Shown piece by piece: positions 25,336 through 56,373 of a stretch of 59,985 bases of DNA. Each line of letters starts with the position of its first letter. Within the stretch, counting starts at the first letter, position 1. The position numbers and the translations under genes were made by a program. Below the pieces are notes generated by a model that saw only the letters and a program-made list of their open reading frames with translations, was not told where the DNA came from and did no database searches. The stretch comes from Escherichia phage vB_EcoS_OddieOddie, in the sequence record OL539454.1. One strand, 5' to 3'.

Positions 25336-25691
25336 TATGCTTTCCCTTTACGACATAAGGCTTGAAGTTCCAGAAGCGCATCAATGTCTTCCTGTGGAGT
25401 TACACCAACGTGAATTGGATATTTAGCGCGACATTCGTAGCCAACGTCAACAGTGTGGTCAATGTAGCCGTAAACACATCCACCAATAACAGTGAAGATA
25501 AGCGCAACAATCATTGTAAGGTATTTGCCTTGTTTGCGTTCTTCATTTTGTTTATTAAGCTGACGGTTAAGTTCCACCGCGTCGATTTTACCTTTGTTGT
25601 AATCGTCTACTAAGCTCATTTTGCATCTCCTCTTGTTGTATGCATATATTAAAACAGACCCGCGAAGGGTCTGCAAGTAGAATTTAGGCAT
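25335..25691 (-). CDS. membrane-anchored hypothetical protein
   Basis: 118-aa ORF with one central hydrophobic helix. Confidence 0.4.
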   Translation of the reverse strand: MPKFYLQTLRGSVLIYAYNKRRCKMSLVDDYNKGKIDAVELNRQLNKQNEERKQGKYLTMIVALIFTVIGGCVYGYIDHTVDVGYECRAKYPIHVGVTPQEDIDALLELQALCRKGKA

Positions 25692-27723
25692 ATCCCATGT
25701 CTTCGAGATACTTCTCTGCTTTAGCTATATAAGCATCATAATCTATGTCGTCCGGTATTTTATCCGGTAGCGTCATGATTGGGACACCTCCCGCGCTACC
25801 AGCTACACGGTTGCCCGAGTTAGCATAGATTATTTCGGGAGTTTCTTCATTGGTGCTTAAATACCAGCGTACAACCTTACCCAAAAATTCGCCATTCCAT
25901 ACCGCGCCACCTTTCACCGCACGTAGGATAATGAATTTTCTAATATCGTTGCAATTGCGTATAGTACGAGAAACAGGCGTACCGTGGGCCAGGCATTCGC
26001 ATACAGCTTCCATGATAATTTCACCCGTACAGTTCTTTTGAAGTCCCGTCTTAGCAAACCAGCCTTTACGTTTGATTTCAACATTTCCTTCCTCATCAGG
26101 TTCTTTTACTGCAACATAGTTATTGACGTTAGCACTGTACAGCTTGTCATAGTAGTTGGATTCCATTTCAAAGCCTGTCACAGACTCCCACCACTTGATC
26201 ATGTTATCAACGAAGCCCTGCATGTGGTCAGGATACTTAACCACAATACCATCCGTGTTAGCAGAAATTACTTTAACACCGTTCAGCTCGAATGCTTCAA
26301 TAAGCATTAACAGGGATAGCTGTCCGGTGATAGTTACCTGTATCAATAATTGCGGCGCGTACAATACGGACCACATTGAACCCAATTTACCAAACGATCC
26401 GTTGATAACGATCTTCAGCGTGTTGGCTGTGTTCTTGTCCCCTGAGTGCTTAGCCGCAATACGACGGTCTACAATGCTTTTATAAACACGAAGAAACGCT
26501 GGTCCCAACTGCTCAGGGTATAAGCCCTGATTAAGAATAATTGAAGGGTAATAGGACGTTACGTCAATGTCCCGCTTCTTAATACCTGGCTCTTTACCGT
26601 GACCAGCACACTCTTCGGAGCTATGCAAACCGCCAATACCCATACGGTAGACACCGTCCGCAATCTTGATCTCCAGGCCTGATAACGCTGGGGGCAAGCT
26701 AACGCCACCGTTATCGCTAACAACAAAGCGGCAGTCCCGAACAATATCCAAAACACTATTCATCAGAGGTGTTTGAAAACGAATAAAGTCCGGTATGTTA
26801 TATGCATATTTAGTTCCAGGATAAACTTGTGGACGCTGCGGACGCACGCCCGTTAACGCTTGAATTTCGTGTTTAATCACGTCTTCTGCAATCTGCGCAT
26901 CAGAACGTGAACGCAGATCCACACCGTATTCTTGCGACATAATTTCACGAAGATGTAAAGGTTCCTGTAATGCAATAAAACATTCTTCCGTCTGTACAAG
27001 GTCGTTAATACAGTACCAGCGTACAATCAACATCTGGTCCTGCGTCAGCATTGTATTTGGCTTGAACGGTAAATCCTGCATACGGCGAGTATGTACACGT
27101 CCGCCATATTGTTTCAAACCACCGGACCCAGGCAGCACTTCCATAATATCAATGTGGTTAACGTTCTGCATACGCTTAAGGCGGTAACTCTTCAACACAT
27201 CAGAAGGACGCCAGTCTTCCACGATTATCTTATCGGTTGCATCTTTAAGCTGAGCATTAGAGCATCCGTTAAGCGCAAGCGTAGCAATGGGCATATCGTA
27301 CCCGTTGCCGTTAAAGCTCACGATAAGGAAGTTTATCATTACCCAGTTAAGTAACAAGCAATTTAAACTACAACCGTGATACATTTCGAAATAGACAACT
27401 TTCTTAGTCCTTACTCCGCGGAATGCGATCAAGAAGTAGTTTGGATAACATTCGATATCGTATACAAGCGGTTCGCGGTTAATCCATGCTTGAATAAGTT
27501 CATCCTGTGTATACAGGTTGTATTGGAAGTTCCGCGCTTCCTCAAGGTTAGGCAAATAATCCGGGCGCTCCCAAGTGCGCTCCGGCGGTAAACGTTTAAC
27601 TTTTTCTTTCTTTGCTTTTGGCTCAGGCGGTAAGTCCTGCCAAAAGAAACCAATAGCATCTGTCCGCATTAGACACGTTCTCCAATTAATACACCGCGAA
27701 GATTTTCCCCAAAGAATGCGCAA
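25684..27723 (-). CDS. family B DNA polymerase with 3'-5' exonuclease motifs
   Basis: 679-aa ORF; exo-I-like YDIECYP; motif A-like DVTSYYPSII; motif B-like KIVINGSFGKLG; motif C-like SANTDGIVV. Confidence 0.7.
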   Translation of the reverse strand: MRILWGKSSRCINWRTCLMRTDAIGFFWQDLPPEPKAKKEKVKRLPPERTWERPDYLPNLEEARNFQYNLYTQDELIQAWINREPLVYDIECYPNYFLIAFRGVRTKKVVYFEMYHGCSLNCLLLNWVMINFLIVSFNGNGYDMPIATLALNGCSNAQLKDATDKIIVEDWRPSDVLKSYRLKRMQNVNHIDIMEVLPGSGGLKQYGGRVHTRRMQDLPFKPNTMLTQDQMLIVRWYCINDLVQTEECFIALQEPLHLREIMSQEYGVDLRSRSDAQIAEDVIKHEIQALTGVRPQRPQVYPGTKYAYNIPDFIRFQTPLMNSVLDIVRDCRFVVSDNGGVSLPPALSGLEIKIADGVYRMGIGGLHSSEECAGHGKEPGIKKRDIDVTSYYPSIILNQGLYPEQLGPAFLRVYKSIVDRRIAAKHSGDKNTANTLKIVINGSFGKLGSMWSVLYAPQLLIQVTITGQLSLLMLIEAFELNGVKVISANTDGIVVKYPDHMQGFVDNMIKWWESVTGFEMESNYYDKLYSANVNNYVAVKEPDEEGNVEIKRKGWFAKTGLQKNCTGEIIMEAVCECLAHGTPVSRTIRNCNDIRKFIILRAVKGGAVWNGEFLGKVVRWYLSTNEETPEIIYANSGNRVAGSAGGVPIMTLPDKIPDDIDYDAYIAKAEKYLEDMGYA

Positions 27724-28622
27724 GGTTGCGGATATAAACTAAAGTCCGCAGTCTTAACCACATTTTCGAGTAATAACAGGATGTCAATATTGTAAACTCC
27801 CGTTATTGATCTGTCCTGCAATACGAAGCTTGCACCTTCCGCATCATCGTAATGAGTACGCGCTAGACCGTTTTCAATATATACGCGAGGACGATCTTCT
27901 GCAAAAGGTTTAATTTTATGCAAACCCTCAAAAAGACCGGGATCAACAGGATGTGCATTGCATTGAACATTTAAAATACGACGTATATCAGGCCACTCCG
28001 CATCAATAAGCTGTGTTCGCAACCAGCGACCTTCCGGATAATGAAATGTTACATTGTTCTTACTAACCTGAATATGTGTCGGGTTAGCTTTAATGCGCAG
28101 TATTTCTTTAATAGCAACAGACGGTATTATGCAGTCAATAGGGAATTGATTACCAAACCAATATTCCGCAATGGTGACGTTATTTGTAGCAAACAGGCTA
28201 CCGTTATTAATCAGAATACCGCAAGCCCACGGGCGGGACGCATCCGAGCCTACAAACGGAGCAACAGACTTCACACCGTGTACGAAGCGAGCACCGTCTA
28301 TTTCGTATAACTCCCCTTCAGGGAATACGTGAGGCGTTTCCTTGTCAATGCAGCGTATAGCAACACGAAACGGTCCGGATTTGATATTAAGTTTACCGTT
28401 AGCCATCATTGTTAACTGTACGGTTTCGTCACAGTTTGAAATAGCTTTAATCATAGGTCCAGCTTCGGGCTTGCAATCAATATCCAGCTCAATAGGGCTA
28501 CCCAGTGCAATAACACCGTTAAATCCCTGTACCTGTCCATCACGAATAAGAAAGCTGGTAAGACCTTCTACCAGTTCCTTTTTAGCGACGGAGCCTTGAA
28601 CAAATTTAAGAGCGTCTAACAT
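27669..28622 (-). CDS. hypothetical protein (possibly sliding-clamp-like)
   Basis: 317-aa ORF between polymerase and dpdA; function not determinable by eye. Confidence 0.4.
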   Translation of the reverse strand: MLDALKFVQGSVAKKELVEGLTSFLIRDGQVQGFNGVIALGSPIELDIDCKPEAGPMIKAISNCDETVQLTMMANGKLNIKSGPFRVAIRCIDKETPHVFPEGELYEIDGARFVHGVKSVAPFVGSDASRPWACGILINNGSLFATNNVTIAEYWFGNQFPIDCIIPSVAIKEILRIKANPTHIQVSKNNVTFHYPEGRWLRTQLIDAEWPDIRRILNVQCNAHPVDPGLFEGLHKIKPFAEDRPRVYIENGLARTHYDDAEGASFVLQDRSITGVYNIDILLLLENVVKTADFSLYPQPCAFFGENLRGVLIGERV

Positions 28623-28849
28623 TAGCGGTCCTCGATTGCTCTAATTGTGGTTAAATCTAATTCACATGTTGGAGGGTATCCATAAAGTCCCATTTGTTTT
28701 CCTTGTGCATTAAACCATGTACCTGACGGATCCTGCCACTGCTTAGGTGTCTTGTGGAGAAATACTACTCTGTTTTCACCGTAATAATTAATTCTTACAC
28801 CTGTGTGAGTATATTTACGTTTACCTTTTGGTCTTCTTAAGTTAGCCAT
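28622..28849 (-). CDS. hypothetical protein
   Basis: 75-aa basic ORF. Confidence 0.4.
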   Translation of the reverse strand: MANLRRPKGKRKYTHTGVRINYYGENRVVFLHKTPKQWQDPSGTWFNAQGKQMGLYGYPPTCELDLTTIRAIEDR

Positions 28850-29769
28850 CAGAACAACTCCATTACACGATCACGGAATGTGCCGTCATGGGTAGCGTTA
28901 ATGTTTGCAGCAATTACACCATACGCCCATAAATTGAAGGCAGCACGTGATTCATAGATTGTTGATAAACGTTCGTAAGTGAAACCGTTTTGCTCAAGGT
29001 ATTTAAGGACAGCGTCTTGTTCAATTTCAGTTAATGTTGAAACATGCTTGCCAAAATGGTGGCGATCCGGTGACTTATCAGATACGCGCATTGGACCCCA
29101 CGGAGGAGTAACCACACTTCCAAACGCTGCCGCTTGAATCCAGGAGGAAGAGTCGCAGCTATACCACGGATAACGTTCCATAATGGTTGTGGACGTAATA
29201 CCAAACGCATGAAGTTTAATCTTAGCACGTCCGCTACCGTCGCAAATGTATTTGTCCCACATGCGGTCCAGCCAAGTTTTAAGCGTGTCCGTGGAACGCC
29301 CTACCATGCCCCCGATGGTGATATATTCGTAGTTCTTCATGTAGTATTCAAGATAGCGGAAGTCCTCCCCAAAGTGAAAGCAAGGTAACGGTTTAGCACC
29401 GCGTGCTTCCATTTCAAGTTGGTTACGGTAGGTTTGCAACGGATCACCAATACCATCGAGCACTGACGCCATTACTGCGCCATCTTCTACACGAAGGATG
29501 TCTTTGTTGCGCTTAATGTATTCGCAGTATTCAACAATATCAATGTGAGCACCCAAAGAGTGCGCGGAGAATGCACCGGAGTCGAGAAACACTTTAGCCC
29601 CGTCAGCACGCATCTGATCAACATACTTTTGACGTCCAACGTAGTGGTATGATTCCAAAATATGGGGCAGATTGCGCGTGATATTTTTCTCATGCTCGGA
29701 CAGCTTTTCATAACGCTGCTGGCCGGGCATATATCCGTTTGTGTAAACTGCTGCCATAAAAACGTTCAT
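28849..29769 (-). CDS. dpdA: tRNA-guanine transglycosylase-like DNA-modifying enzyme (DpdA-like)
   Basis: 306-aa ORF with TGT-like nucleophile motif VFLDSGAFS; located beside folE/queD/queC/queE. Confidence 0.6.
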   Translation of the reverse strand: MNVFMAAVYTNGYMPGQQRYEKLSEHEKNITRNLPHILESYHYVGRQKYVDQMRADGAKVFLDSGAFSAHSLGAHIDIVEYCEYIKRNKDILRVEDGAVMASVLDGIGDPLQTYRNQLEMEARGAKPLPCFHFGEDFRYLEYYMKNYEYITIGGMVGRSTDTLKTWLDRMWDKYICDGSGRAKIKLHAFGITSTTIMERYPWYSCDSSSWIQAAAFGSVVTPPWGPMRVSDKSPDRHHFGKHVSTLTEIEQDAVLKYLEQNGFTYERLSTIYESRAAFNLWAYGVIAANINATHDGTFRDRVMELF

Positions 29770-29999
29770 TTTTGGAACGGTCCTCCAAACTGATCAATTA
29801 GTTCTAAAGTACGCCACACTTCATTAAATGCTTCGTCCGCTCGATGTTTAGCGTCAATAAGCTGCTGCTTTAAGATATTTGTAGGCGCATCATTCTGTAT
29901 TGCAGAGCAAGCATCCGCAGTACCTGCTTTAAGCTTGTAGAATGCAGCTTCTAAAATTAATTGTCTTGACATATTTTCCCCAATGACTAAAAAGCCCAT
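29766..29999 (-). CDS. hypothetical protein
   Basis: 77-aa ORF between dpdA and folE. Confidence 0.4.
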   Translation of the reverse strand: MGFLVIGENMSRQLILEAAFYKLKAGTADACSAIQNDAPTNILKQQLIDAKHRADEAFNEVWRTLELIDQFGGPFQK

Positions 30000-30043
30000 A
30001 CCAGTATTATGACCGATATGGGCTTGATCTGTAAAGCTATCTA

Positions 30044-30658
30044 TTATTTACAAGCTTCAAGGAACTCACGGCGCCATTCTTTACCAATATCGCTACCATG
30101 CTCCAGTTCTGTAGCGCCACGGAACGCTTTAGTAATAGTAGAGCTGCCGCATACCTGCTTAACACCGCGCGACTCCATGCACATATGCTTGGCGTCAATA
30201 TAAACACATACAGCTTTCGGGTTTAAATGCTCCTGAATAGCGTCTGCAATCTGGTTAGTAAGACGTTCCTGAACTTGCAGTCGACGACTAAAAGCATCCA
30301 CAACGCGAGACAGCTTACTAAGCCCAACGATCTTCCCATTGGGAACATAACCCACAACAGCATGACCGATAATAGGAGCCATGTGATGCTCACAATGACT
30401 GTATACAGGAATATCACGGACAATGACCATTTCATTGGTGTTTTCCGCTCCGTCCTCAAAGGTCTTAAACAACCCAGCAATATCTACATCATAACCGCCG
30501 AACCACGTCTGGTATGCTTTAGCAACACGTTCAGGAGTCTCTTCCAACCCAGGACGGAGTTCTGTTGAACCTTCAATATTTAAAAGTAATGAACTAATGG
30601 CAATTTTTACAGTATCTTTACGCATGGTTTGCAGTTTCCTTGTTGTTAATGTGGTCAT
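30044..30658 (-). CDS. folE: GTP cyclohydrolase I
   Basis: 204-aa ORF with SHCEHHMAPI and VGLSKLSRVVDAFSRRLQVQERLT signature. Confidence 0.8.
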   Translation of the reverse strand: MTTLTTRKLQTMRKDTVKIAISSLLLNIEGSTELRPGLEETPERVAKAYQTWFGGYDVDIAGLFKTFEDGAENTNEMVIVRDIPVYSHCEHHMAPIIGHAVVGYVPNGKIVGLSKLSRVVDAFSRRLQVQERLTNQIADAIQEHLNPKAVCVYIDAKHMCMESRGVKQVCGSSTITKAFRGATELEHGSDIGKEWRREFLEACK

Positions 30659-30660
30659 AC

Positions 30661-31152
30661 TTACAGGCTATAGTTTACGTGACATTTCGAAGTTTCTTCG
30701 ATGGTGCATTCTACAAGTTGAACACCATGTTCGTCAAGCAGTTGCGGTCCAATTACTTCAACCATATATGCAGCTAGGTTTTCGGCGGTAGGGTTGAACG
30801 GTAAAGATACCAGCGAGTTGTCAAAGTCCCTTACATCGTGACCCGTAGCTTCGTCACAAAGTTCAAGATCAACCTGAAGAGCTTTAATCAAAGGATCTTC
30901 TTCCCAGTGTAGGAATTTATGATCCCAATTATCTTCCAACCACTGGCAGAGCGTAGTTTTAACCACACTAAAATCGATAACTCGCCCAACGTCGTCCAGC
31001 AAAATACTATTGATTTCTTGCGACCCTTTTTTCGGTGCAACCTTAAAGTGAAACTTATAGTTGTGACCATGAAGGTGACGACACTTACTTTCATGACCCA
31101 CAACACGGTGACCAGCGCAAATTTCATGTGAACGAATTACTGTATAACTCAT
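30661..31152 (-). CDS. queD: 6-carboxy-5,6,7,8-tetrahydropterin synthase
   Basis: 163-aa ORF with CAGHRVVGH...CRHLHGHNYKF (Cys-His-Gly-His zinc motif). Confidence 0.75.
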   Translation of the reverse strand: MSYTVIRSHEICAGHRVVGHESKCRHLHGHNYKFHFKVAPKKGSQEINSILLDDVGRVIDFSVVKTTLCQWLEDNWDHKFLHWEEDPLIKALQVDLELCDEATGHDVRDFDNSLVSLPFNPTAENLAAYMVEVIGPQLLDEHGVQLVECTIEETSKCHVNYSL

Positions 31153-31766
31153 TTTAATACCTCTTTAGACTGTTCAATTTCTAACGCACGTTGCGCCGAC
31201 GCAATAATGTCTTTTAAGTCTTCTACCAGACTTTTATGACCGCGTTCGCCCGGCCGCAACGCTTTTTTGATTAAATGCTGCAAAGCTGGGTTCGTTGTTT
31301 CCCAGGCGGTAAGAACATCATACACATCTACAACAATTGAAGCAACATGCCCGTCAATATCTTTACCGCGGATAAGGCGCTGGTATTTGGTCAGACGGTT
31401 ATCTTCAGGATAGCTCTGGTAACGTGCTTCTGGAACCGTCATTGCAATTTCCATCACTTCTTTAAACTCGTGCTCGGTTATCGGACCTTCGCTAGCTTGC
31501 TTGGCATAATCCTCCGCAACGATATATCGCCAAGATATAACTGAATCCCTTTCTAACGGTATTACGTTATCACAGGATTTTTTATACCAGTCCCATCCTT
31601 GCTTATGGTTTTTCTTAAGAGAACCGTCAGCTAATTGAACTTCAAACTGCTCGTTTTGAAGAAAAATGGGCATCCCTTTTCCATCATGTTTGTGCCAGAT
31701 TTTATTAAGATTATCTTTCATTTTTACGCTCTCGCTGTACGTGAATGAACTTCGTAAACAACCCAA
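31149..31766 (-). CDS. hypothetical protein inside deazaguanine cluster
   Basis: 205-aa ORF between queD and the transporter gene; no motif recognised. Confidence 0.45.
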   Translation of the reverse strand: MGCLRSSFTYSESVKMKDNLNKIWHKHDGKGMPIFLQNEQFEVQLADGSLKKNHKQGWDWYKKSCDNVIPLERDSVISWRYIVAEDYAKQASEGPITEHEFKEVMEIAMTVPEARYQSYPEDNRLTKYQRLIRGKDIDGHVASIVVDVYDVLTAWETTNPALQHLIKKALRPGERGHKSLVEDLKDIIASAQRALEIEQSKEVLK

Positions 31767-32203
31767 AGGATGGCAGATGCTGTGAACTTACTTAAGCTCA
31801 TTGCTACCATTGATCCCGGATTAACAATACCTATAATACTTAAGAACACAATGGAGTCAATCGGTACAGCTACCAAAGAGCTGATAAATACTCGTTGATG
31901 GAAAGGCTTCTTAGTAATCGTATACACCGCGTAATCCGCAAACTCACTAAGTGCAAATGACGCAACGGATGCAACTACAACCGCAGGATCTCCGAACACC
32001 CAGCTAAGAATGCAACCGACAATCATTGCAGGGATAACGCCTTTGCCAGCGTTACGCTGTGCGTAGTCACGCAGGACGAAGATAATACCTACGAAGAAAG
32101 CCATCATGGGTACTACGCCAAGCGGCGTGTTAAGCATTGGAAGATAGGAAAAGCCCAGGTTTACGAATGTAATTGCAGCCAGATAAGCAACGATAAATTT
32201 CAT
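31724..32203 (-). CDS. queuosine-precursor transporter-like membrane protein (YhhQ/DUF165-like)
   Basis: 159-aa polytopic membrane protein in the que cluster; composition resembles YhhQ family. Confidence 0.45.
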   Translation of the reverse strand: MKFIVAYLAAITFVNLGFSYLPMLNTPLGVVPMMAFFVGIIFVLRDYAQRNAGKGVIPAMIVGCILSWVFGDPAVVVASVASFALSEFADYAVYTITKKPFHQRVFISSLVAVPIDSIVFLSIIGIVNPGSMVAMSLSKFTASAILWVVYEVHSRTARA

Positions 32204-32323
32204 ACTTTTGTTCTCCAGTTTTAACAGCGTTATTCGCTGGTTGTTGGGTTTAAAAGCTTTAGTAGTATAGTTGGGTTACCGCACCCTAAACAATAAGCTA
32301 GCGGTGCGGTTTTCGCGGTAAGA

Positions 32324-33031
32324 TCAAGCTTTGCTAATAAATTCGCTGTACCCTTTAGCACGGAGTTTACACGCCGGGCATTCCCCGCAACCATATCCCC
32401 AGTCATGCAGAGTGCGACGAACGCCGTTATAACACGTATGGGACTGTTCAATTACTGTGGTCAAGAAACCAACCTTATCCGCCAGCTCAAACGTTTCTGC
32501 TTTATTTAAACGCATAAGCGGTGTAACAAAATGGATATCAGTTTCATATCCAACGTTTAATGTAGCTTCAAGGAGATCAACAAACTGCTGACGACAATCC
32601 GGATAACCGCTATAGTCTGTTTCACATACGCCTGTAACCACATATCGGGCTCCAACCTTCTGCGCATAAGCGTGCGCGGTTGTCAGAAAAAGAGCATTAC
32701 GGTTTGGCACAAAACTTGCCGGAAGGTTACTGTGCTGTTCGTGATGTTCGTTAACATCACCTTCGTTCCCGATCAAAGCGCTATTACCGATCTGTTTCAA
32801 AGCTGGTAATTCAAAGACAACAAACGGGACATTGTGCTCTTTACAAATTTGATTAGCACAAGCCAGCTCAATGTTATGACGTTGACCGTATGCAAAACCA
32901 ATAGCGTAAACTTTATCATAGTTATTAAGCGCAAGACCTAGGCAAGTCACGCTATCCTGGCCGCCAGACAGGACGACAACGGCGGAGTTATGATTTTTTA
33001 CAGGGAATACCAGTTTATCTAATTTATTCAT
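32324..33031 (-). CDS. queC: 7-cyano-7-deazaguanine synthase
   Basis: 235-aa ORF with PP-loop VVLSGGQDSVTC and C-terminal zinc site CGECPACKLR. Confidence 0.8.
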   Translation of the reverse strand: MNKLDKLVFPVKNHNSAVVVLSGGQDSVTCLGLALNNYDKVYAIGFAYGQRHNIELACANQICKEHNVPFVVFELPALKQIGNSALIGNEGDVNEHHEQHSNLPASFVPNRNALFLTTAHAYAQKVGARYVVTGVCETDYSGYPDCRQQFVDLLEATLNVGYETDIHFVTPLMRLNKAETFELADKVGFLTTVIEQSHTCYNGVRRTLHDWGYGCGECPACKLRAKGYSEFISKA

Positions 33032-33032
33032 T

Positions 33033-33230
33033 TTAGAAACCTTTAAGGCTAATATTAAGGTTAACGACTACTTGTTCAACTACATCTTCACAGGTCATCT
33101 GACGCTTGTGAATTTCAAGTTCCGAATATATTTTCTTTGAAGCTGCGCGACACAGGGCATCATTCAATTCGTCTTGCAGACGTTGAATCTTCTGCATAAG
33201 CAGTATAGTTTCTTCATTCATCTTCCACAC
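33033..33230 (-). CDS. hypothetical protein
   Basis: 65-aa ORF between queC and queE. Confidence 0.35.
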   Translation of the reverse strand: MWKMNEETILLMQKIQRLQDELNDALCRAASKKIYSELEIHKRQMTCEDVVEQVVVNLNISLKGF

Positions 33231-33426
33231 CTTTAATATGACAAGGGTTGATTGTTACATTTGACATTACAATTGGATGATTACGTGCTCCAATTGTACT
33301 AACGTGATTAATATCTAATTCTACATGCACACCCTGCATAGTAGCATGAGCAATTGCAGAATTAAGTTTTTCAACCAGCTCAGTGATCATTTCCTGATGC
33401 TGTTTCGCTTCTTCCAAAGTGATCAT
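33214..33426 (-). CDS. hypothetical protein
   Basis: 70-aa ORF between queC and queE. Confidence 0.35.
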   Translation of the reverse strand: MITLEEAKQHQEMITELVEKLNSAIAHATMQGVHVELDINHVSTIGARNHPIVMSNVTINPCHIKGVEDE

Positions 33427-33681
33427 TTAAACCTCCGTTAATGTTTGAGTCCAGTCTAAGCCTTCAAGGTCTACATCAGCTATTTCATCGTACTCGTAAG
33501 CTCCCGGATCTGCTGGCAGCCATCTATCAAATCGATGGCTGAGTTCTGGAGGAATTGCTTCATACCCCCAAACCTTCCCATCCTTGTCGGCTGCCAGATA
33601 ATCAACTCGACTTGGAACGGTTAAAGTGACACCACAAAAATTAACATCTTTAGTATGCACAACCTGACTTAACACACGCAT
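33427..33681 (-). CDS. hypothetical protein
   Basis: 84-aa acidic ORF, coupled to queE. Confidence 0.4.
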   Translation of the reverse strand: MRVLSQVVHTKDVNFCGVTLTVPSRVDYLAADKDGKVWGYEAIPPELSHRFDRWLPADPGAYEYDEIADVDLEGLDWTQTLTEV

Positions 33682-34388
33682 TATTCCACCCCGATATATT
33701 TGTGAACCTGAAGCTGCAACGTGTACCCGTGTTTCATACAGCTTTGGATAACGGCTTGGATGTTACTGTGGTTAAGATCTTCATCCTGCTCGTCCATTGG
33801 CTGTAAATATATCTTACCCTTGAACCCCTTCGGAGGTCTAGCGATAAATGGCGTAGCTTGATGATCTAATGCTTGAAGAGGTAAACCGTCTTCCACGTTT
33901 ACACAGCACGCTTTAAGTACATATTTAAATGCATTAGCGCGGTACAGCACAGAAGGATGAATCTTTGAAGTCTTAGGACTGCATACAATGACAGGTAGCT
34001 GGGAAAAGTTCTTAGGTAAAGGCATAGACCCATTAGTTTCGATTTGCACCAAATAGCCCCGCGATAACAGTTGTTCAATGAACGGGTTAATTTGCTGACG
34101 GAACGGTTCACCCCCAGTAATAACCACAAGTGAGGTGCTATTGCCTGATTCCAGCTTACGGCTTTCGATTAAACGCATGATATCAACAATGTGGTAAAGA
34201 GAACGACCAACAGTATAATCCGTGTCGCAGCCCGGGCATTGCAGGTTACATCCAGCAAGACGCACAAATACAGCAGGTTGGCCGCAGAACGGACCTTCAC
34301 CCTGAATGGTAGAGAATACCGAATGCACGTCTAAATACATATCGTTTTCTTTAGAACGAGACTCGGGAGCTTGTTGATTAATATCCAT
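33681..34388 (-). CDS. queE: 7-carboxy-7-deazaguanine synthase (radical SAM)
   Basis: 235-aa ORF with STIQGEGPFCGQPAVFVRLAGCNLQCPGCDTDY. Confidence 0.8.
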   Translation of the reverse strand: MDINQQAPESRSKENDMYLDVHSVFSTIQGEGPFCGQPAVFVRLAGCNLQCPGCDTDYTVGRSLYHIVDIMRLIESRKLESGNSTSLVVITGGEPFRQQINPFIEQLLSRGYLVQIETNGSMPLPKNFSQLPVIVCSPKTSKIHPSVLYRANAFKYVLKACCVNVEDGLPLQALDHQATPFIARPPKGFKGKIYLQPMDEQDEDLNHSNIQAVIQSCMKHGYTLQLQVHKYIGVE

Positions 34389-34457
34389 CTTAAATCCTCT
34401 AGTGAAAAAGAAAGCGCCTCATTGGGCGCCTTCATTATAACGTGATATGTTTTGATA

Positions 34458-35270
34458 TTACAAGCCGTTCAGGGCTTCCGGTACTGGTACAGGTACGCGA
34501 CCAGTCACACCATTAAATTTCTTCCAGCGTGCATACTGGGTTTTAACAGTATCTTCGTTCAGACCGTGACGACCAGCCAGGTTCAGAACATAAGAGATCG
34601 GGGCAGGCTGACCCAGCGTAGCGCTAATCTGGTCCATCAGAGCCCAAGCACGACCGCAGGAAGTTTCCGGTTGCGGACGGCGAACACCGTTCTGTTCCGG
34701 CATACGATTAGCTTCTTTTTCTTTCTCGCGGAGCTCTTTAGCGCGTGCTTTTTCCGCTTCTTTTTCTGCCTGTTTTGCAGCACGGATCTTGTCTTTGAAG
34801 CCTTTAATAGTAGCTTCCAGACCATCCACCAGACCCTGAGCAGAAGTTACAGCACCGGACAGGTCTTCACCTTTAGACTTCTTAACGACAGCTTTCAGCT
34901 CTTTCAGAGCTTCTTTAATGGTCTTCAGGTTTGCAGATCCCTGAGTTTCTGCTTCCGTGATCTGTTCAACAGTGCTTTCGTCGGTGACGGTAGCCAAAGA
35001 GTTTTTCAGGATTTCAGCAGCGTTAGCAATCGCATTAAATTTGTTTTCCGCTTCAGTGCGGATTTCAGCTTGTTTCTTTTCAGCGGCAGCTTTTTTCTCT
35101 GCTTCTTTTTTCTCTTTTGCTACGCGTGCAGCTTCAGCGGCAGCGGCTTTCTTAGCTTCTGCATCATTCACAGTAGCTTCTTTCTTTGCAGGTTTAGCAG
35201 ATTTTGCAGCGGCGGCAGCAGCGGCTGCGGCAGCAGCTTTTTTGTCTTCAATGTTGCTCATTCTCTTCAC
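34458..35270 (-). CDS. Lys/Ala-rich low-complexity protein (histone-like DNA-binding candidate)
   Basis: 270-aa ORF with 12-residue poly-Ala run and K/A/E repeats, then a non-repetitive C-terminal domain. Confidence 0.45.
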   Translation of the reverse strand: MKRMSNIEDKKAAAAAAAAAAAKSAKPAKKEATVNDAEAKKAAAAEAARVAKEKKEAEKKAAAEKKQAEIRTEAENKFNAIANAAEILKNSLATVTDESTVEQITEAETQGSANLKTIKEALKELKAVVKKSKGEDLSGAVTSAQGLVDGLEATIKGFKDKIRAAKQAEKEAEKARAKELREKEKEANRMPEQNGVRRPQPETSCGRAWALMDQISATLGQPAPISYVLNLAGRHGLNEDTVKTQYARWKKFNGVTGRVPVPVPEALNGL

Positions 35271-35388
35271 TCCGAATTGTTATGGGTTCGTTTGTTACCA
35301 ACGGGGTTAAATGTACCAAAGGATTTTGTGACACGCAACCCCTTATCTGAATATTTTTAAAAATATTTTTGATCAAGCTTAGAACTTA

Positions 35389-35942: not shown

Positions 35943-37925
35943 TTAGAACGGAACGTAATCCGGATCATCTACTTGTACAGGGTTAACCACATTGTTCACC
36001 GTTATGCCTTGCGTATTCTGTGAAACAATATCATCCCAGCTCACATCATCATTATAGCTTGGACCTTCTGTTGTTCCATCCTGCCCGTATACTTTAACCT
36101 GAATAGCTTCGTCGTCCTGTGGTGCTTCAAACTTACCGAAACACGTACCATCATAATCATAGTTCAAAATCTCAGGCCATTTCTTATTGGTATGAACTTT
36201 GATGTATTTCGGCGTTTTGAGCATCGCAGCAACATCAAGGGCTTCTTCAATAGTTTGTGGTAAAGGAAGATGCGTCCTTTTCTTCCACCATGCAACCGCT
36301 TTACGACCAGCCCAGTCGCCATGCAGCAAAGCTACCCATTCGCTGAATATTTTACTACCGCAATAATAAGTCACCTTCATTGTTGGAGGTTTGGAGCTGT
36401 CATTGCGTTTAGTGTGCTTCGCATAAGTAACATGCGTAACTTTGAAGTCTTCAACTACCGGAATGTCCTGTTTGATCAGTGCTTCGGTACTTGCTGCCTT
36501 TTTAAGTTTCGTCTGGAACTTAAACTCATGACCGCAAAATCCTTCTTTAACATAATCCGTTCCACGTAGTCTAAATCCCTTCAAATATAATTGTTGAACT
36601 TGTTCCTGTGTAACGCTGTCCATAGGAATTGGTGCAAAGCCACCACAATAGCGAGCAGATGCATGATTATACGACCCGCACACATCGCATTCTTTAACCG
36701 GAGCAGTACCAGCACCTTTTTCGCCCGGGCGCTTGGGTTTAACAGGGTCGTTAATAGGGCCCAAACGACGCGTATTACCGCTGAAATCCAGTACAAGGCA
36801 GTTCTGCTTAGGGCTTGCTGCAATAGCTTGCAAGCGACCTTCCTGCGTGGAAAGATCAAAACCCTCCGCATATACCGGACGCGTACCGCGACCCAACATC
36901 TGAACCCATAGCACCGCCGAGGCAGTGGGGCGAAGCATGATAATTAGATCAAGCATCGGATGGTCGAACCCTGTGGTTAAGACGTTGTTGTTCGTCAGGG
37001 CTCGAAACTCTCCACGCTTGAATTTTTCAATAATTTCATCACGCTCTTTTGCATCAAGCTTTGAGTGAATACATCCGCAGCTAATACCCATATCGTTCAG
37101 CATATCACACGCATCTTTAGCGTGTTCAATACCAGAACAAAATATAAGCCAGCTTTGACGGTCTTCACCACATTCAATGGCTTCCTCAAGTGCGCGGAGT
37201 GTTGCGTCGTCGCGGTTCACCGCACTTTGCAGCTCACTCTGAATAAACTCACCGCCTCGTTTACCTACCCCGTTGATGTCCAGTTCCATCTTTGTACGCT
37301 TTGGCACAACTGGAAGTAAATAGCCTTGCTCCAGGAACCAGTTAAAGGCTTCAGGGGTAGTTGCATCAAACGTTACTTTATCAAATAAAGCATCATCGTC
37401 TTCGTTTTCCTTAACAATTGAGCCGTAACCCAGTCGGTAAGGTGTAGCGGTAAGACCGATAATTTTTAAATACGGGTTAACTTCACGCAATGCTGCAAAG
37501 AACTTCTTATACATTGTTGCATCACGCGGACTAATAAGGTGCGCTTCATCCACAAAGATTAGATCAACCTTGCCGAACTTTTTAGGATGCTTGGCAACAG
37601 ATGCAATCCCCGCAAATGTGATAAGATTATAAACTTCTTTACGCTTCAAACCTGCGCTGTAAATACCTGCTGGCGCTTCAGGCCAGACTTTCATTAATTT
37701 ATCATAGTTTTGTGCAATTAACTCTTTGACGTGAGTTAACATCATTACGCGCTGGTTTGGATACCATTTATAAAGCAGATCGAGGAACCCCGCGATAACG
37801 AGCGATTTTCCTGTCCCTGTTGGTAACAGGATTAAAGGGTTCCCCGCGTTACCCTTTTCAGCATCAAAATAGCGGAATACGCTATAAACTGCTTCCTGTT
37901 GATAATCGCGGAGCTGCATAATCAA
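35943..37925 (-). CDS. superfamily 2 DEAH-box DNA helicase
   Basis: 660-aa ORF; Walker A LLPTGTGKS, Walker B FVDEAHLI, C-terminal Cys cluster. Confidence 0.7.
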   Translation of the reverse strand: MIMQLRDYQQEAVYSVFRYFDAEKGNAGNPLILLPTGTGKSLVIAGFLDLLYKWYPNQRVMMLTHVKELIAQNYDKLMKVWPEAPAGIYSAGLKRKEVYNLITFAGIASVAKHPKKFGKVDLIFVDEAHLISPRDATMYKKFFAALREVNPYLKIIGLTATPYRLGYGSIVKENEDDDALFDKVTFDATTPEAFNWFLEQGYLLPVVPKRTKMELDINGVGKRGGEFIQSELQSAVNRDDATLRALEEAIECGEDRQSWLIFCSGIEHAKDACDMLNDMGISCGCIHSKLDAKERDEIIEKFKRGEFRALTNNNVLTTGFDHPMLDLIIMLRPTASAVLWVQMLGRGTRPVYAEGFDLSTQEGRLQAIAASPKQNCLVLDFSGNTRRLGPINDPVKPKRPGEKGAGTAPVKECDVCGSYNHASARYCGGFAPIPMDSVTQEQVQQLYLKGFRLRGTDYVKEGFCGHEFKFQTKLKKAASTEALIKQDIPVVEDFKVTHVTYAKHTKRNDSSKPPTMKVTYYCGSKIFSEWVALLHGDWAGRKAVAWWKKRTHLPLPQTIEEALDVAAMLKTPKYIKVHTNKKWPEILNYDYDGTCFGKFEAPQDDEAIQVKVYGQDGTTEGPSYNDDVSWDDIVSQNTQGITVNNVVNPVQVDDPDYVPF

Positions 37926-43912: not shown

Positions 43913-44548
43913 TCATAATTGGATGCAAAGACACTTCTTCTCAGATGTAACCACATCAGTCGCAGGTACAAAGTTGTTGGACTGCTCGTCTCCAAGTTTC
44001 CACCCTTTGCCGTTACCCTTTTTAAGTTCGCCCGTACCAGTGGACCCAAAGCCATTAGCACCGCGCTCGGTTGTTTTAAGCTCGTCTACTTCTACCAGTT
44101 GCACGCAAGGCACCTTGATAAGCATAGCTTGCGCAATACGGTCACCATGACTAACAGTAAAGCCCCAATTGCTATCGATGGTAAGTTTGACCTTAACTTC
44201 CCCAGTGTAGTCGCTGTCAATAACGCCTACACAGTTAGCTAAGCGAACGTCATTTTTAAACCCGTGACCGCTACGGGAATACACCATAAGTGCATATCCT
44301 TTAGGGATATCAAATGCTAAACCTGTTCGGAATATGTAGTCACCTGAGAAAATAATTTGTTCACATCCATCTTCACTCTTAAGGTCCGCGTGCAGGTCAA
44401 AGCAAGCTGCCCCAGCACTAGCAAACACTGGCAGAATAGCGGTGTCCGTTAAGCGTTTTACCCATAGTGGTATTGTGCTTAATGCTGAGGCAAATTTTTC
44501 AACATCAATTGCATAAGAACTTTGTGTGGTATTTAATACGTCAGTCAT
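43913..44548 (-). CDS. dut: dUTP diphosphatase
   Basis: 211-aa ORF with dUTPase motifs SRSGHG, GVIDSDYTGEV, GDRIAQ, RGANGFGSTG. Confidence 0.8.
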   Translation of the reverse strand: MTDVLNTTQSSYAIDVEKFASALSTIPLWVKRLTDTAILPVFASAGAACFDLHADLKSEDGCEQIIFSGDYIFRTGLAFDIPKGYALMVYSRSGHGFKNDVRLANCVGVIDSDYTGEVKVKLTIDSNWGFTVSHGDRIAQAMLIKVPCVQLVEVDELKTTERGANGFGSTGTGELKKGNGKGWKLGDEQSNNFVPATDVVTSEKKCLCIQL

Positions 44549-44560
44549 AATTTCACCTTA

Positions 44561-45034
44561 TTAAGAATATGTACCTGTTTGAACAATGTGGCTAATAGCA
44601 TGTGCTCTGAAGATTTCTCTAAAATCTTCAAGCTCTATTGTAGCGCGAATCGGTTCCTTCTTGATATAATAATTGAACTCATTAATATCAAAGACGGAAG
44701 GATTCATACATATAACAACTTTCCAACCAGCTCTAGGAATCTTATACATTAAGACCGGAATTTTATTACATTCACGTGCAGACTTAACAGTTTGCTTCCA
44801 CCATGTATTAACAGCAAGAGTTGCATGGTTTTTAATCTCTACACAATATTGACAAGTGTTATCAATGTCCGCACCACCTACAGCCGATTGATTCTGTCGT
44901 CTTTGTGCGATAGGTTTAGGTGGTAAAGGTCTACCGATAAGCTCATGTACTTCAGCATAAATATCGTTGAAAAAATCACAAGCTTCTCGTTCCGCACGCT
45001 GACCCTTTTGTCGTATGTTAACCATGATTCGCAA
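44561..45034 (-). CDS. small PD-(D/E)XK-type nuclease candidate
   Basis: 157-aa ORF with GGADID ... VEIKN (D...ExK pattern). Confidence 0.4.
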   Translation of the reverse strand: MRIMVNIRQKGQRAEREACDFFNDIYAEVHELIGRPLPPKPIAQRRQNQSAVGGADIDNTCQYCVEIKNHATLAVNTWWKQTVKSARECNKIPVLMYKIPRAGWKVVICMNPSVFDINEFNYYIKKEPIRATIELEDFREIFRAHAISHIVQTGTYS

Positions 45035-45503
45035 ATTCCTTATGTAATTCTAATCTTTTAGACTTAACCCAACTTTTAGCAGATTGTAAACCTTCAGGTG
45101 TAAAATCAAAATATTTTGATACCAAAACACCTCTTACGTGTAGGTTTGCATAATAAACTTGGATACCGTTATGTTTTGCAATGGTGACGCATTTAACTCC
45201 TGTTTTTGAGTCTTTACGAATAACCATATTATAATTGTTCTGTGAACGATCTGCCAGTCTAAGATTTTCTATTCTGTTATCGTCTTTAACTCCATTAATA
45301 TGATCTATCACCATCCCTTCAGGTATAGGTCCGTTAAAGTATTGCCATATTAACCTGTGAGCAAAATAAAACCTCTTATCAATCTTGCCTTGAATATAAC
45401 CGTCCTGACGTTTTGTACCAAATGGTCTTTTATTATAGCCGTTTTTATTTCTTTGAAACAATTTACCGTCTATATAAATAAAGCGTTCGTTTACATTGAT
45501 CAT
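45018..45503 (-). CDS. HNH homing endonuclease
   Basis: 161-aa ORF with DHINGVKDDNRIENLRL HNH motif and AP2-like C-terminal region; preceded by a terminator-like hairpin. Confidence 0.7.
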   Translation of the reverse strand: MINVNERFIYIDGKLFQRNKNGYNKRPFGTKRQDGYIQGKIDKRFYFAHRLIWQYFNGPIPEGMVIDHINGVKDDNRIENLRLADRSQNNYNMVIRKDSKTGVKCVTIAKHNGIQVYYANLHVRGVLVSKYFDFTPEGLQSAKSWVKSKRLELHKEFANHG

Positions 45504-55980: not shown

Positions 55981-56373
55981 ATGCTATTAGTCGTCACCGG
56001 AGGTCGAGATTTTAAGCATGTGGATTATATTTATGCTCAACTGGATAAGCTGCATATGCAAAGAAGGATAACCACACTTCGCCACGGTGACGCTGACGGT
56101 GTTGACCGGATTTGTGCACATTGGGCGGAGCGCAACGGTATTACGACAGAAGCGTTCCCTGCCCCGTGGGACAATCTTTCCTTACCAAATACCAAGATAC
56201 GGTATAACGCCAAGGGTGCTTATAATGCACAAGCTGGCGCATACCGTAACCAATTAATGCTGGATACTGATCCTAAACCAGATCACGCTATTGTGTTTCC
56301 TGGCGGAGCTGGTACTATGGATATGTACAGACGGATTAAAGCATCCGGTATCCCTTACACATTAGCGGAGTAA
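55981..56373 (+). CDS. Rossmann-like hypothetical protein (possible SLOG/DUF2493-like)
   Basis: 130-aa ORF starting LLVVTGGRD, with HGDADGVD and FPGGAG motifs. Confidence 0.4.
   Translation: MLLVVTGGRDFKHVDYIYAQLDKLHMQRRITTLRHGDADGVDRICAHWAERNGITTEAFPAPWDNLSLPNTKIRYNAKGAYNAQAGAYRNQLMLDTDPKPDHAIVFPGGAGTMDMYRRIKASGIPYTLAE

Follow-up and report, generated by a model that had tools for sequence, protein, structure and literature searches.

The closest described counterpart of the locus considered here is that of Escherichia phage CAjan (Seuratvirus cajan), in which guanine is replaced in DNA by 2′-deoxy-preQ0 (dPreQ0), the deoxynucleoside of 7-cyano-7-deazaguanine (preQ0). CAjan DNA contains 70,628 dPreQ0 per 10^6 nucleotides (nt), ~32% of G, with dADG, dG+ (2′-deoxyarchaeosine), dPreQ1 and dQ each at <6 per 10^6 nt, and deletion of its dpdA gene abolishes all modification, the mutant DNA being fully digested and the restriction resistance gone (PMC6884629). 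Deletion of folE or queC lowers modification 12-fold, the remainder coming from host preQ0, deletion of yhhQ leaves modification unaffected, and nanopore mapping places the modified sites at GA and GGC (PMC7544227). Seuratvirus phages of the BASEL collection resist type I and type II restriction-modification in vivo and are sensitive to type III (PMC8594841). We analysed the 59,985-nt sequence of Escherichia phage vB_EcoS_OddieOddie (record OL539454.1; the whole of this stretch is referred to below as the window), in which positions 28849-34388 of the minus strand hold folE, queD, queE and queC together with a gene for a DNA guanine transglycosylase, dpdA. We assign this region, with high confidence, to the 7-deazaguanine DNA hypermodification module of Seuratvirus (CAjan type). 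The system has already been described in detail as a defining, characterised feature of the genus, and the copy described here is textbook phage DNA hypermodification that introduces no new principle; the value of the finding lies mainly in annotation, OddieOddie being a Seuratvirus in which dPreQ0 is expected at GA and GGC.

Other described systems share parts of this arrangement while differing in gene content, target or product. Phage 9g (Nonagvirus) belongs to the same subfamily, Queuovirinae, and its cluster likewise adjoins the polymerase gene, its proteins being 69% (DpdA), 83% (FolE), 74% (QueD) and 63% (QueE) identical to those of the window. The annotated 9g cluster lacks a yhhQ-like gene, unlike the window, and encodes a 471-amino acid (aa) fusion of a glutamine amidotransferase (Gat) to QueC, with nothing in the window corresponding to its Gat half; the 9g cluster yields dG+ at ~25% of G and not dPreQ0 (PMC10516641). 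Pseudomonas phage iggy, a further member of the Queuovirinae, uses FolE, QueD, QueE and QueC together with DpdA to insert dPreQ0 and gains restriction protection (PMC10484667). The iggy DpdA acts at GA only, modifying ~16.5% of G, whereas the DpdA of the window is identical to the CAjan enzyme with its two motifs, GA and GGC. The bacterial Dpd system of Salmonella Montevideo (structure 7ui4) likewise replaces G by preQ0 in double-stranded DNA, with the same TIM-barrel fold and the same catalytic aspartates; it differs in having the DpdB ATPase partner, DpdC and the restriction genes dpdD-K, not found in the scanned open reading frames (ORFs) of the window, and in its density of modification, which is <0.1% of G compared with ~30% for the Seuratvirus-type system (PMC10516641).

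The window is a complete ~60 kb Seuratvirus genome (subfamily Queuovirinae). Each of its thirds is collinear with Escherichia phages KS_A8, RCIP0359, KS_W4, Seurat, SeppeHuegi and CAjan, with nucleotide identities to Seuratvirus relatives of 92-97% over 80-100% of each third and matches that begin at base 1 of several Seuratvirus records. Matches to the cluster occur in 57 phage records, of which 32 cover at least 80% of it, and the records of CAjan and KurtStettler (BASEL Bas22) annotate these genes in this order. In CAjan the cluster also lies on the same strand and in the same place between a helicase and the DNA polymerase clamp, with a stand-alone QueC and without QueF or Gat, as in the window. 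A preliminary description of the locus, made from the sequence alone, had delimited the cluster exactly: the dpdA stop codon ends at position 28849 and queE begins at position 34388, both genes being on the minus strand, and the genes in window order run 3′ to 5′ with respect to their transcripts. The interval is wholly coding and consists of 11 tightly packed, partly overlapping ORFs, all of them intact. It sits inside the replication module, bordered on one side by a superfamily II helicase (35943-37925) and two small genes and on the other by a sliding-clamp-like protein (27669-28622) and the DNA polymerase (25684-27723). The downstream neighbour of the cluster, orf75, is 100% identical to the corresponding CAjan protein.

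All four preQ0 synthesis enzymes are present and intact with their catalytic motifs kept, in agreement with the preliminary description, which had assigned each of them by a signature motif; the family scores are far above chance. FolE (30044-30658, minus strand), a GTP cyclohydrolase I and the first step from GTP to preQ0, matches PF01227 with an E value of 6e-63, exceeds the cut-offs of three NCBIfam FolE models (NF006825, 208 bits vs 174) and contains the zinc-binding and catalytic motifs CEHH at residues 89-92 and HMCMESRG at 158-165, with an amino acid identity of only 83-88% to its counterparts in CAjan (87.6%), KurtStettler and 9g. A weak QueF-like match on FolE (E 1.7e-5, below cut-off) was considered as a possible hidden QueF reductase and rejected, as it lies inside the region matched by GTP_cyclohydroI and is explained by the known relatedness of T-fold enzymes. 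QueD (30661-31152, minus strand), a 6-carboxy-5,6,7,8-tetrahydropterin synthase, matches the PTPS family PF01242 past its gathering score (E 1.9e-24), contains the motif CRHLHGH at residues 24-30 and is 76-78% identical to the CAjan (75.6%) and KurtStettler proteins. QueC (32324-33031, minus strand; 235 aa), the preQ0 synthase, matches PF06508 (E 1.2e-74) and TIGR00364 (242 bits vs a cut-off of 150), with a PP-loop SGGQDS at residues 22-27 and a zinc motif CGECPAC at 215-221, and is 97-98% identical to CAjan QueC (97.4%). It matches only positions 132-351 of the 418-position profile phrog_1550 and is a stand-alone enzyme with no Gat fusion. QueE (33681-34388, minus strand), the 7-carboxy-7-deazaguanine synthase of the radical S-adenosylmethionine (SAM) family, has five QueE models as its best NCBIfam matches (E 8e-28 to 2e-20), matches phrog_2076 'QueE-like radical SAM' at E 1.4e-68, carries the CX3CX2C cluster motif as CNLQCPGC at residues 47-54 and is 98.7% identical to CAjan QueE.

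The synthesis genes are adjoined by dpdA (28849-29769, minus strand; 306 aa), identified through its matches to CAjan and to phrog_887 'queuine tRNA-ribosyltransferase' (E 8e-96) and through its predicted fold; the TGT-like gene that the preliminary description had noted beside the synthesis genes is thus borne out as dpdA. The protein is 100% identical in amino acid sequence to the DpdA of CAjan and KurtStettler and belongs to a large family, a profile search of 1.84 billion representatives returning 6,483 proteins at E ≤ 0.001. Searches of the Protein Data Bank (PDB) with the single sequence or a shallow profile found nothing, alignment of the family profile to a single E. coli tRNA-guanine transglycosylase (TGT) sequence with hhalign gave a probability of 5.7%, and a diverse 61-member profile retrieved 7ui4_A, 'DNA-guanine transglycosylase', at an E value of only 0.16. 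The last alignment pairs GGMV with GGMV, HGFG with HLLG, SVDSTSW with SIDSTTP and LDSGAF with GDCGAF, and brings D63 and D206 onto Asp95 and Asp256 of 7ui4, the latter being its experimentally validated nucleophile, in a numbering that allows for a 20-residue tag. Substitution of either residue (D95A or D256A) abolishes the activity of bacterial DpdA (PMC10164549). Of the active-site residues published for CAjan DpdA, D206 is the same in all 61 homologues, the most distant of which are 29% identical, and D63, S64, D105, H132, G153, G154 and F189 are each at least 90% kept, F67 being nearly invariant only in the closer homologues; the catalytic aspartate pair and the base-recognition Asp and His are therefore all retained.

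Structure prediction points to the same superfamily. A first AlphaFold2 model, built from 33 sequences at ~70% identity, reached a predicted local distance difference test score (pLDDT) of 62.5, and Foldseek with this shallow-alignment model gave no significant PDB match. A second model, built from 83 sequences at 45-75% identity, reached a pLDDT of 94.1 and a predicted TM-score (pTM) of 0.90, and all 50 of the PDB matches listed for it by Foldseek are TGTs (probability 1.00, E 3e-6 to 3e-4), the best of those listed being the archaeal TGT (arcTGT) 1j2b_A at E 3.3e-6 with query- and target-normalised TM-scores of 0.59 (TMq) and 0.34 (TMt). The model shows the (beta/alpha)8 TIM-barrel fold of TGTs. 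Like DpdA, arcTGT (1j2b/1iq8) uses preQ0 as its substrate; it differs in targeting G15 of tRNA, in its large C-terminal domains, in binding zinc and in a sequence identity to the window DpdA of ~15%. DpdA is the catalytic barrel alone, 306 aa in length as against 576 aa for arcTGT. We thus place DpdA in the TGT superfamily on the grounds of its fold and active site and not of a curated sequence model. The preliminary description had read VFLDSGAFS as the nucleophile motif; the motif is present at residues 60-68, but its aspartate, Asp63, is predicted to be the general acid/base and the nucleophile to be Asp206 in YSCDSSSW. A homology model of CAjan DpdA likewise has Asp206 as nucleophile and Asp63 as base (PMC7544227), and the assignment made here follows that modelling together with the alignment to bacterial DpdA and its mutagenesis. 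As a separate observation, six DpdA1 homologues of ~600 aa from outside the window (P0123, P0128, P0137, P0146, P0155 and P0180) contain an intein-like insert of ~315 aa that starts with Cys and ends with Asn followed by Ser. It lies between YPW[YH] and SVDSSSW, two residues ahead of the predicted nucleophile Asp206, and in P0128 shows a weak LAGLIDADG match (E 0.0018).

The gene content of the cluster is that of a minimal FolE-QueD-QueE-QueC-DpdA set. To look for tailoring enzymes, a Pfam scan was made of the cluster genes and of 38 other ORFs of the minus-strand and right arms from 24093 onwards (the four shortest being 91-98 aa), the ORFs of the structural arm (1-23848), which relatives annotate as virion genes, not being scanned one by one. 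No QueF, glutamine amidotransferase, ArcS, DpdC or ParB-like DpdB domain was found in any of the scanned ORFs, and no methyl- or formyl-transferase domain was detectable; Gat-QueC, ArcS, QueF, DpdC, DpdM and DpdN are likewise all missing from this set. A tblastn search with the Gat half (residues 1-240) of 9g Gat-QueC gave no match in the whole window, the QueC half (residues 241-457) matching the window queC at 28% identity. The earlier statement that neither a QueF reductase nor an amidotransferase fusion is encoded was thus upheld. Since no homologue of QueF, Gat, ArcS, DpdC or DpdB was found in these searches, preQ0 is the base expected to be inserted. As DpdA is identical to the CAjan enzyme, its two motifs, GA and GGC, should hold here as well. 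Counting both strands, the window contains 6,530 GA and 1,040 GGC sites, i.e. 7,570 of 26,717 Gs (28.3%) or 63,099 per 10^6 nt, a value near that measured for CAjan, and by analogy ~28-32% of Gs should be modified.

These data suggest the following course of events. During infection FolE, QueD, QueE and QueC would turn GTP into the free base preQ0, which would add to the host preQ0 pool, and the YhhQ-like membrane protein encoded in the cluster may salvage extra preQ0. DpdA, which is a TGT-superfamily enzyme of minimal, TIM-barrel form, would then flip out guanines at GA and GGC in double-stranded phage DNA, in what is presumably a double displacement: Asp206 would form a covalent intermediate, after which Asp63 would serve as general base and allow N9 of preQ0 to attack C1′, leaving 2′-deoxy-preQ0 in the DNA. 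We infer that OddieOddie behaves like CAjan and that its DpdA needs no DpdB-like ATPase. The modification would be sequence-specific and probably post-replicative, and would blunt type I and type II restriction. Guanine replacement and the accompanying restriction protection, as proposed in the preliminary description, have been shown in CAjan, which has an identical DpdA and 97-99% identical QueC, QueE and YhhQ (PMC6884629, PMC7544227). The DNA of OddieOddie is accordingly of the kind expected to withstand many restriction enzymes of types I and II, to disturb nanopore base-calling and to affect cloning and restriction mapping; partial resistance to Cas9 in vitro has been reported for a related phage (PMC10484667).

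A number of observations qualify the assignment. No Pfam family is found on DpdA at E ≤ 0.01, the TGT family PF01702 going undetected, and the bacterial DpdA equivalog NF041059 scores 16.9 bits against a cut-off of 200; the protein works like DpdA while being a member of the phage DpdA1 subfamily and not of the bacterial one. TGTs and bacterial DpdA conserve a zinc motif, CxCxxC...H. This motif is absent from the window DpdA, which has only four cysteines (82, 130, 176 and 205) and neither a CxC nor a CxxC, in contrast to bacterial DpdA, which keeps it. Among the synthesis enzymes, QueD matches TIGR03367 at E 6e-19, under the NCBIfam equivalog cut-off, and all five QueE equivalog models score below their cut-offs, so that the profile searches proposed for the locus place FolE, QueD (by Pfam) and QueC past the cut-offs, leave QueE matched below them and find the catalytic residues of the TGT-like ORF in place. 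The YhhQ-like protein is sub-threshold for both Vut_1 (E 1.9e-5, 25.5 bits vs a gathering score of 27.2) and TIGR00697 (E 1.4e-4, 21.7 bits vs 50.95) and has no significant BLASTP match to E. coli YhhQ (E 1.3). The CAjan experiments are silent on one small ORF of the window, orf84, because it is not in CAjan. Finally, the folE-queD-orf205 patch (30000-31800) is ≤84% identical in nucleotide sequence to any of 50,697 phage records. None of these results contradicts the Seuratvirus-type module; they are caveats only.

The patch is sharply bounded and represents a divergent allele or a recombination patch. The genes that flank it (dpdA, the yhhQ-like gene, queC and queE) have 97-100% protein identity to CAjan, and within it identities to CAjan fall to 88% (FolE), 76% (QueD) and 76% (orf205), with all catalytic motifs of the folE-queD allele intact. 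Relatives also carry insertions or deletions in this region, including an endonuclease in slur01 and, in CAjan, an additional ORF of 324 nt that separates queD from the orf205 orthologue. Such local peculiarities, divergent alleles as well as small accessory ORFs that come and go, are ordinary phage mosaicism.

We weighed three other explanations of the cluster. In one of these the final base would not be preQ0 but dADG, dG+, dPreQ1, dCDG or an undescribed derivative, made by way of orf77, orf205, orf65, orf70 or orf84 or of the divergent FolE and QueD. The cluster does contain these five ORFs without assigned function, one of which, orf84, is missing from CAjan, the only Seuratvirus found with a published nucleoside analysis, and the low identity of the folE-queD-orf205 patch to all catalogued phages might be taken in the same sense. 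Against this, no QueF, amidotransferase, ArcS, DpdC or methyl-/formyl-transferase domain is detectable, the unassigned ORFs are of 65-84 aa or bear no enzymatic signature, and all but orf84 have orthologues in CAjan, whose DNA contains dPreQ0 only (PMC6884629). The steps of FolE and QueD moreover lie upstream of preQ0, both enzymes retain their catalytic motifs, and DpdA is 100% identical to an enzyme that inserts preQ0. We regard a different final base as very improbable, and the preliminary description, which had allowed for preQ0 or for a product of the unassigned neighbouring ORFs, appears sound in its first option and unlikely in its second. The related and broader possibility that the divergent folE-queD-orf205 segment or orf84 confers a chemistry, density or regulation unlike that of CAjan, for example a dPreQ0 derivative made by an undescribed type of enzyme, strikes us as highly improbable.

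A decaying remnant, in which DNA would be unmodified or modified from host preQ0 only, could be suspected from the divergent folE-queD segment and from the viability of CAjan folE and queC mutants at 12-fold lower modification (PMC7544227), so that selection on the synthesis genes could be relaxed. All eleven ORFs are nevertheless intact, packed and overlapping as in relatives, every catalytic motif is retained, and the divergence of FolE and QueD is of the level seen between functional genera, as the values for 9g FolE (83%) and QueD (74%) illustrate; inactivity of the cluster is thus extremely improbable. Database names such as 'queuine tRNA-ribosyltransferase', together with the fact that the closest structures are TGTs, might instead suggest that the genes act on tRNA, the TGT-like protein being a tRNA transglycosylase that tunes translation through a queuosine- or archaeosine-type modification. 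This role is barely conceivable for a 306-aa barrel without the C-terminal tRNA-binding domains (hence the unequal TM-scores against the 576-aa arcTGT) and without the zinc subdomain motif, encoded in a window that has no tRNA genes, when CAjan genetics show that dPreQ0 in DNA depends on the identical enzyme (PMC6884629). The Seuratvirus-type DNA modification module remains the explanation that we favour.

Interspersed with the enzymes of this module are the YhhQ-like gene and five ORFs without assigned function. The YhhQ-like small membrane protein (31724-32203, minus strand), which lies inside the cluster and went unmentioned in the preliminary description, is 98.7% identical to a CAjan 'putative preQ0 transporter' and was recognised through this orthologue and its marginal match to Vut_1. 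At 159 aa it is short compared with the ~220 aa of multi-pass YhhQ / Vut_1 proteins, and from its sequence the label 'preQ0 transporter' is plausible. The neighbouring orf205 (31149-31766, minus strand) probably starts at the ATG at 31721, giving 190 aa; it matches phrog_23361 from residue 16 (E 1.2e-94), its C-terminus matches five other PHROGs, and no match was found in PDB, Pfam or NCBIfam. It is 76-78% identical to its orthologues in CAjan (76%) and KurtStettler, and its C-terminal domain of ~90 aa is 46% identical to that of gp07, the product of the equivalent position in Nonagvirus 9g. The CAjan yhhQ deletion is given as 550 bp at position 31,850 (Table 1, PMC7544227). If 31,850 is the left end, we infer from the table, this not being a statement of the paper, that the CAjan orf205 orthologue (31513-32082) loses its 5′ part as well, with modification unchanged.

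The remaining small ORFs of the cluster, all on the minus strand, are orf77 (29766-29999), orf65 (33033-33230), orf70 (33214-33426) and orf84 (33427-33681). No domain was detectable in orf77, orf65 or orf70, which are 92-97% identical to their CAjan orthologues (orf77 96%, orf65 92%, orf70 97%); orf77 matches phrog_20065 (E 1.5e-41) with no Pfam or NCBIfam match. The CAjan orthologue of orf70 is labelled 'radical SAM domain-containing protein', a function that we reject for orf70 as 70 aa are too few and no radical SAM family was matched. The accessory orf84 matches phrog_1972 (E 4.8e-23). A tblastn search of the CAjan and KurtStettler loci did not find it; another 13 Seuratvirus records, including Seurat, KS_A8, KS_W4 and slur01, carry it with nucleotide identities of 97-99.7%.

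Restriction sites were counted in the window and compared with first-order Markov simulations based on the window's own dinucleotide transitions. The EcoKI site AAC(N6)GTGC does not occur (0 vs 9.4 +/- 2.9), and PstI (1), KpnI (1), EcoRI (5) and HaeIII (46) sites are all far under expectation, with EcoRV (GATATC, 15 sites) and HindIII sites not depleted and EcoP15I sites (CAGCAG) enriched. The Gs of the EcoKI, PstI and KpnI sites fall mostly outside GA and GGC contexts, and site avoidance may complement modification. The pattern is not a clean one, HindIII not being avoided and HaeIII being avoided despite the GGC in its site.

A scan of the cluster for promoters and terminators yielded 17 promoter-like sites against 13.2 +/- 4.2 expected, which is not above chance. 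No RNA family, including the preQ1 riboswitch, was found in an Rfam search at gathering thresholds, and ARAGORN found no tRNA genes in the window. In the intergenic region upstream of queE (34410-34463, minus strand) there is a sigma-70-like site, TTGTAA-18-TATAAT, followed by a 9-bp GC-rich hairpin and T-run (34433-34410) that is probably the terminator of the upstream gene. The product of this gene (34458-35270, minus strand), which lies directly upstream of queE, has 270 aa, is of low complexity with an abundance of Ala, Lys and Glu, and has no Pfam match; it shares 87% identity with a CAjan 'transcriptional activator FtrA domain-containing protein' and 43% with gp09 of 9g. A plus-strand ORF of greater length at 34452-35360 is the antisense shadow of this gene. 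Elsewhere in the window a free-standing HNH endonuclease gene (45018-45503, minus strand; PF13392, E 3.7e-23), probably a homing endonuclease, adjoins genes for a PDDEXK nuclease (44561-45034) and a dUTPase (43913-44548). In the late or accessory region lies a gene (55981-56373, plus strand) whose 130-aa product belongs to the YspA/cpYpsA-related SLOG family (PF10686, E 5.9e-18).

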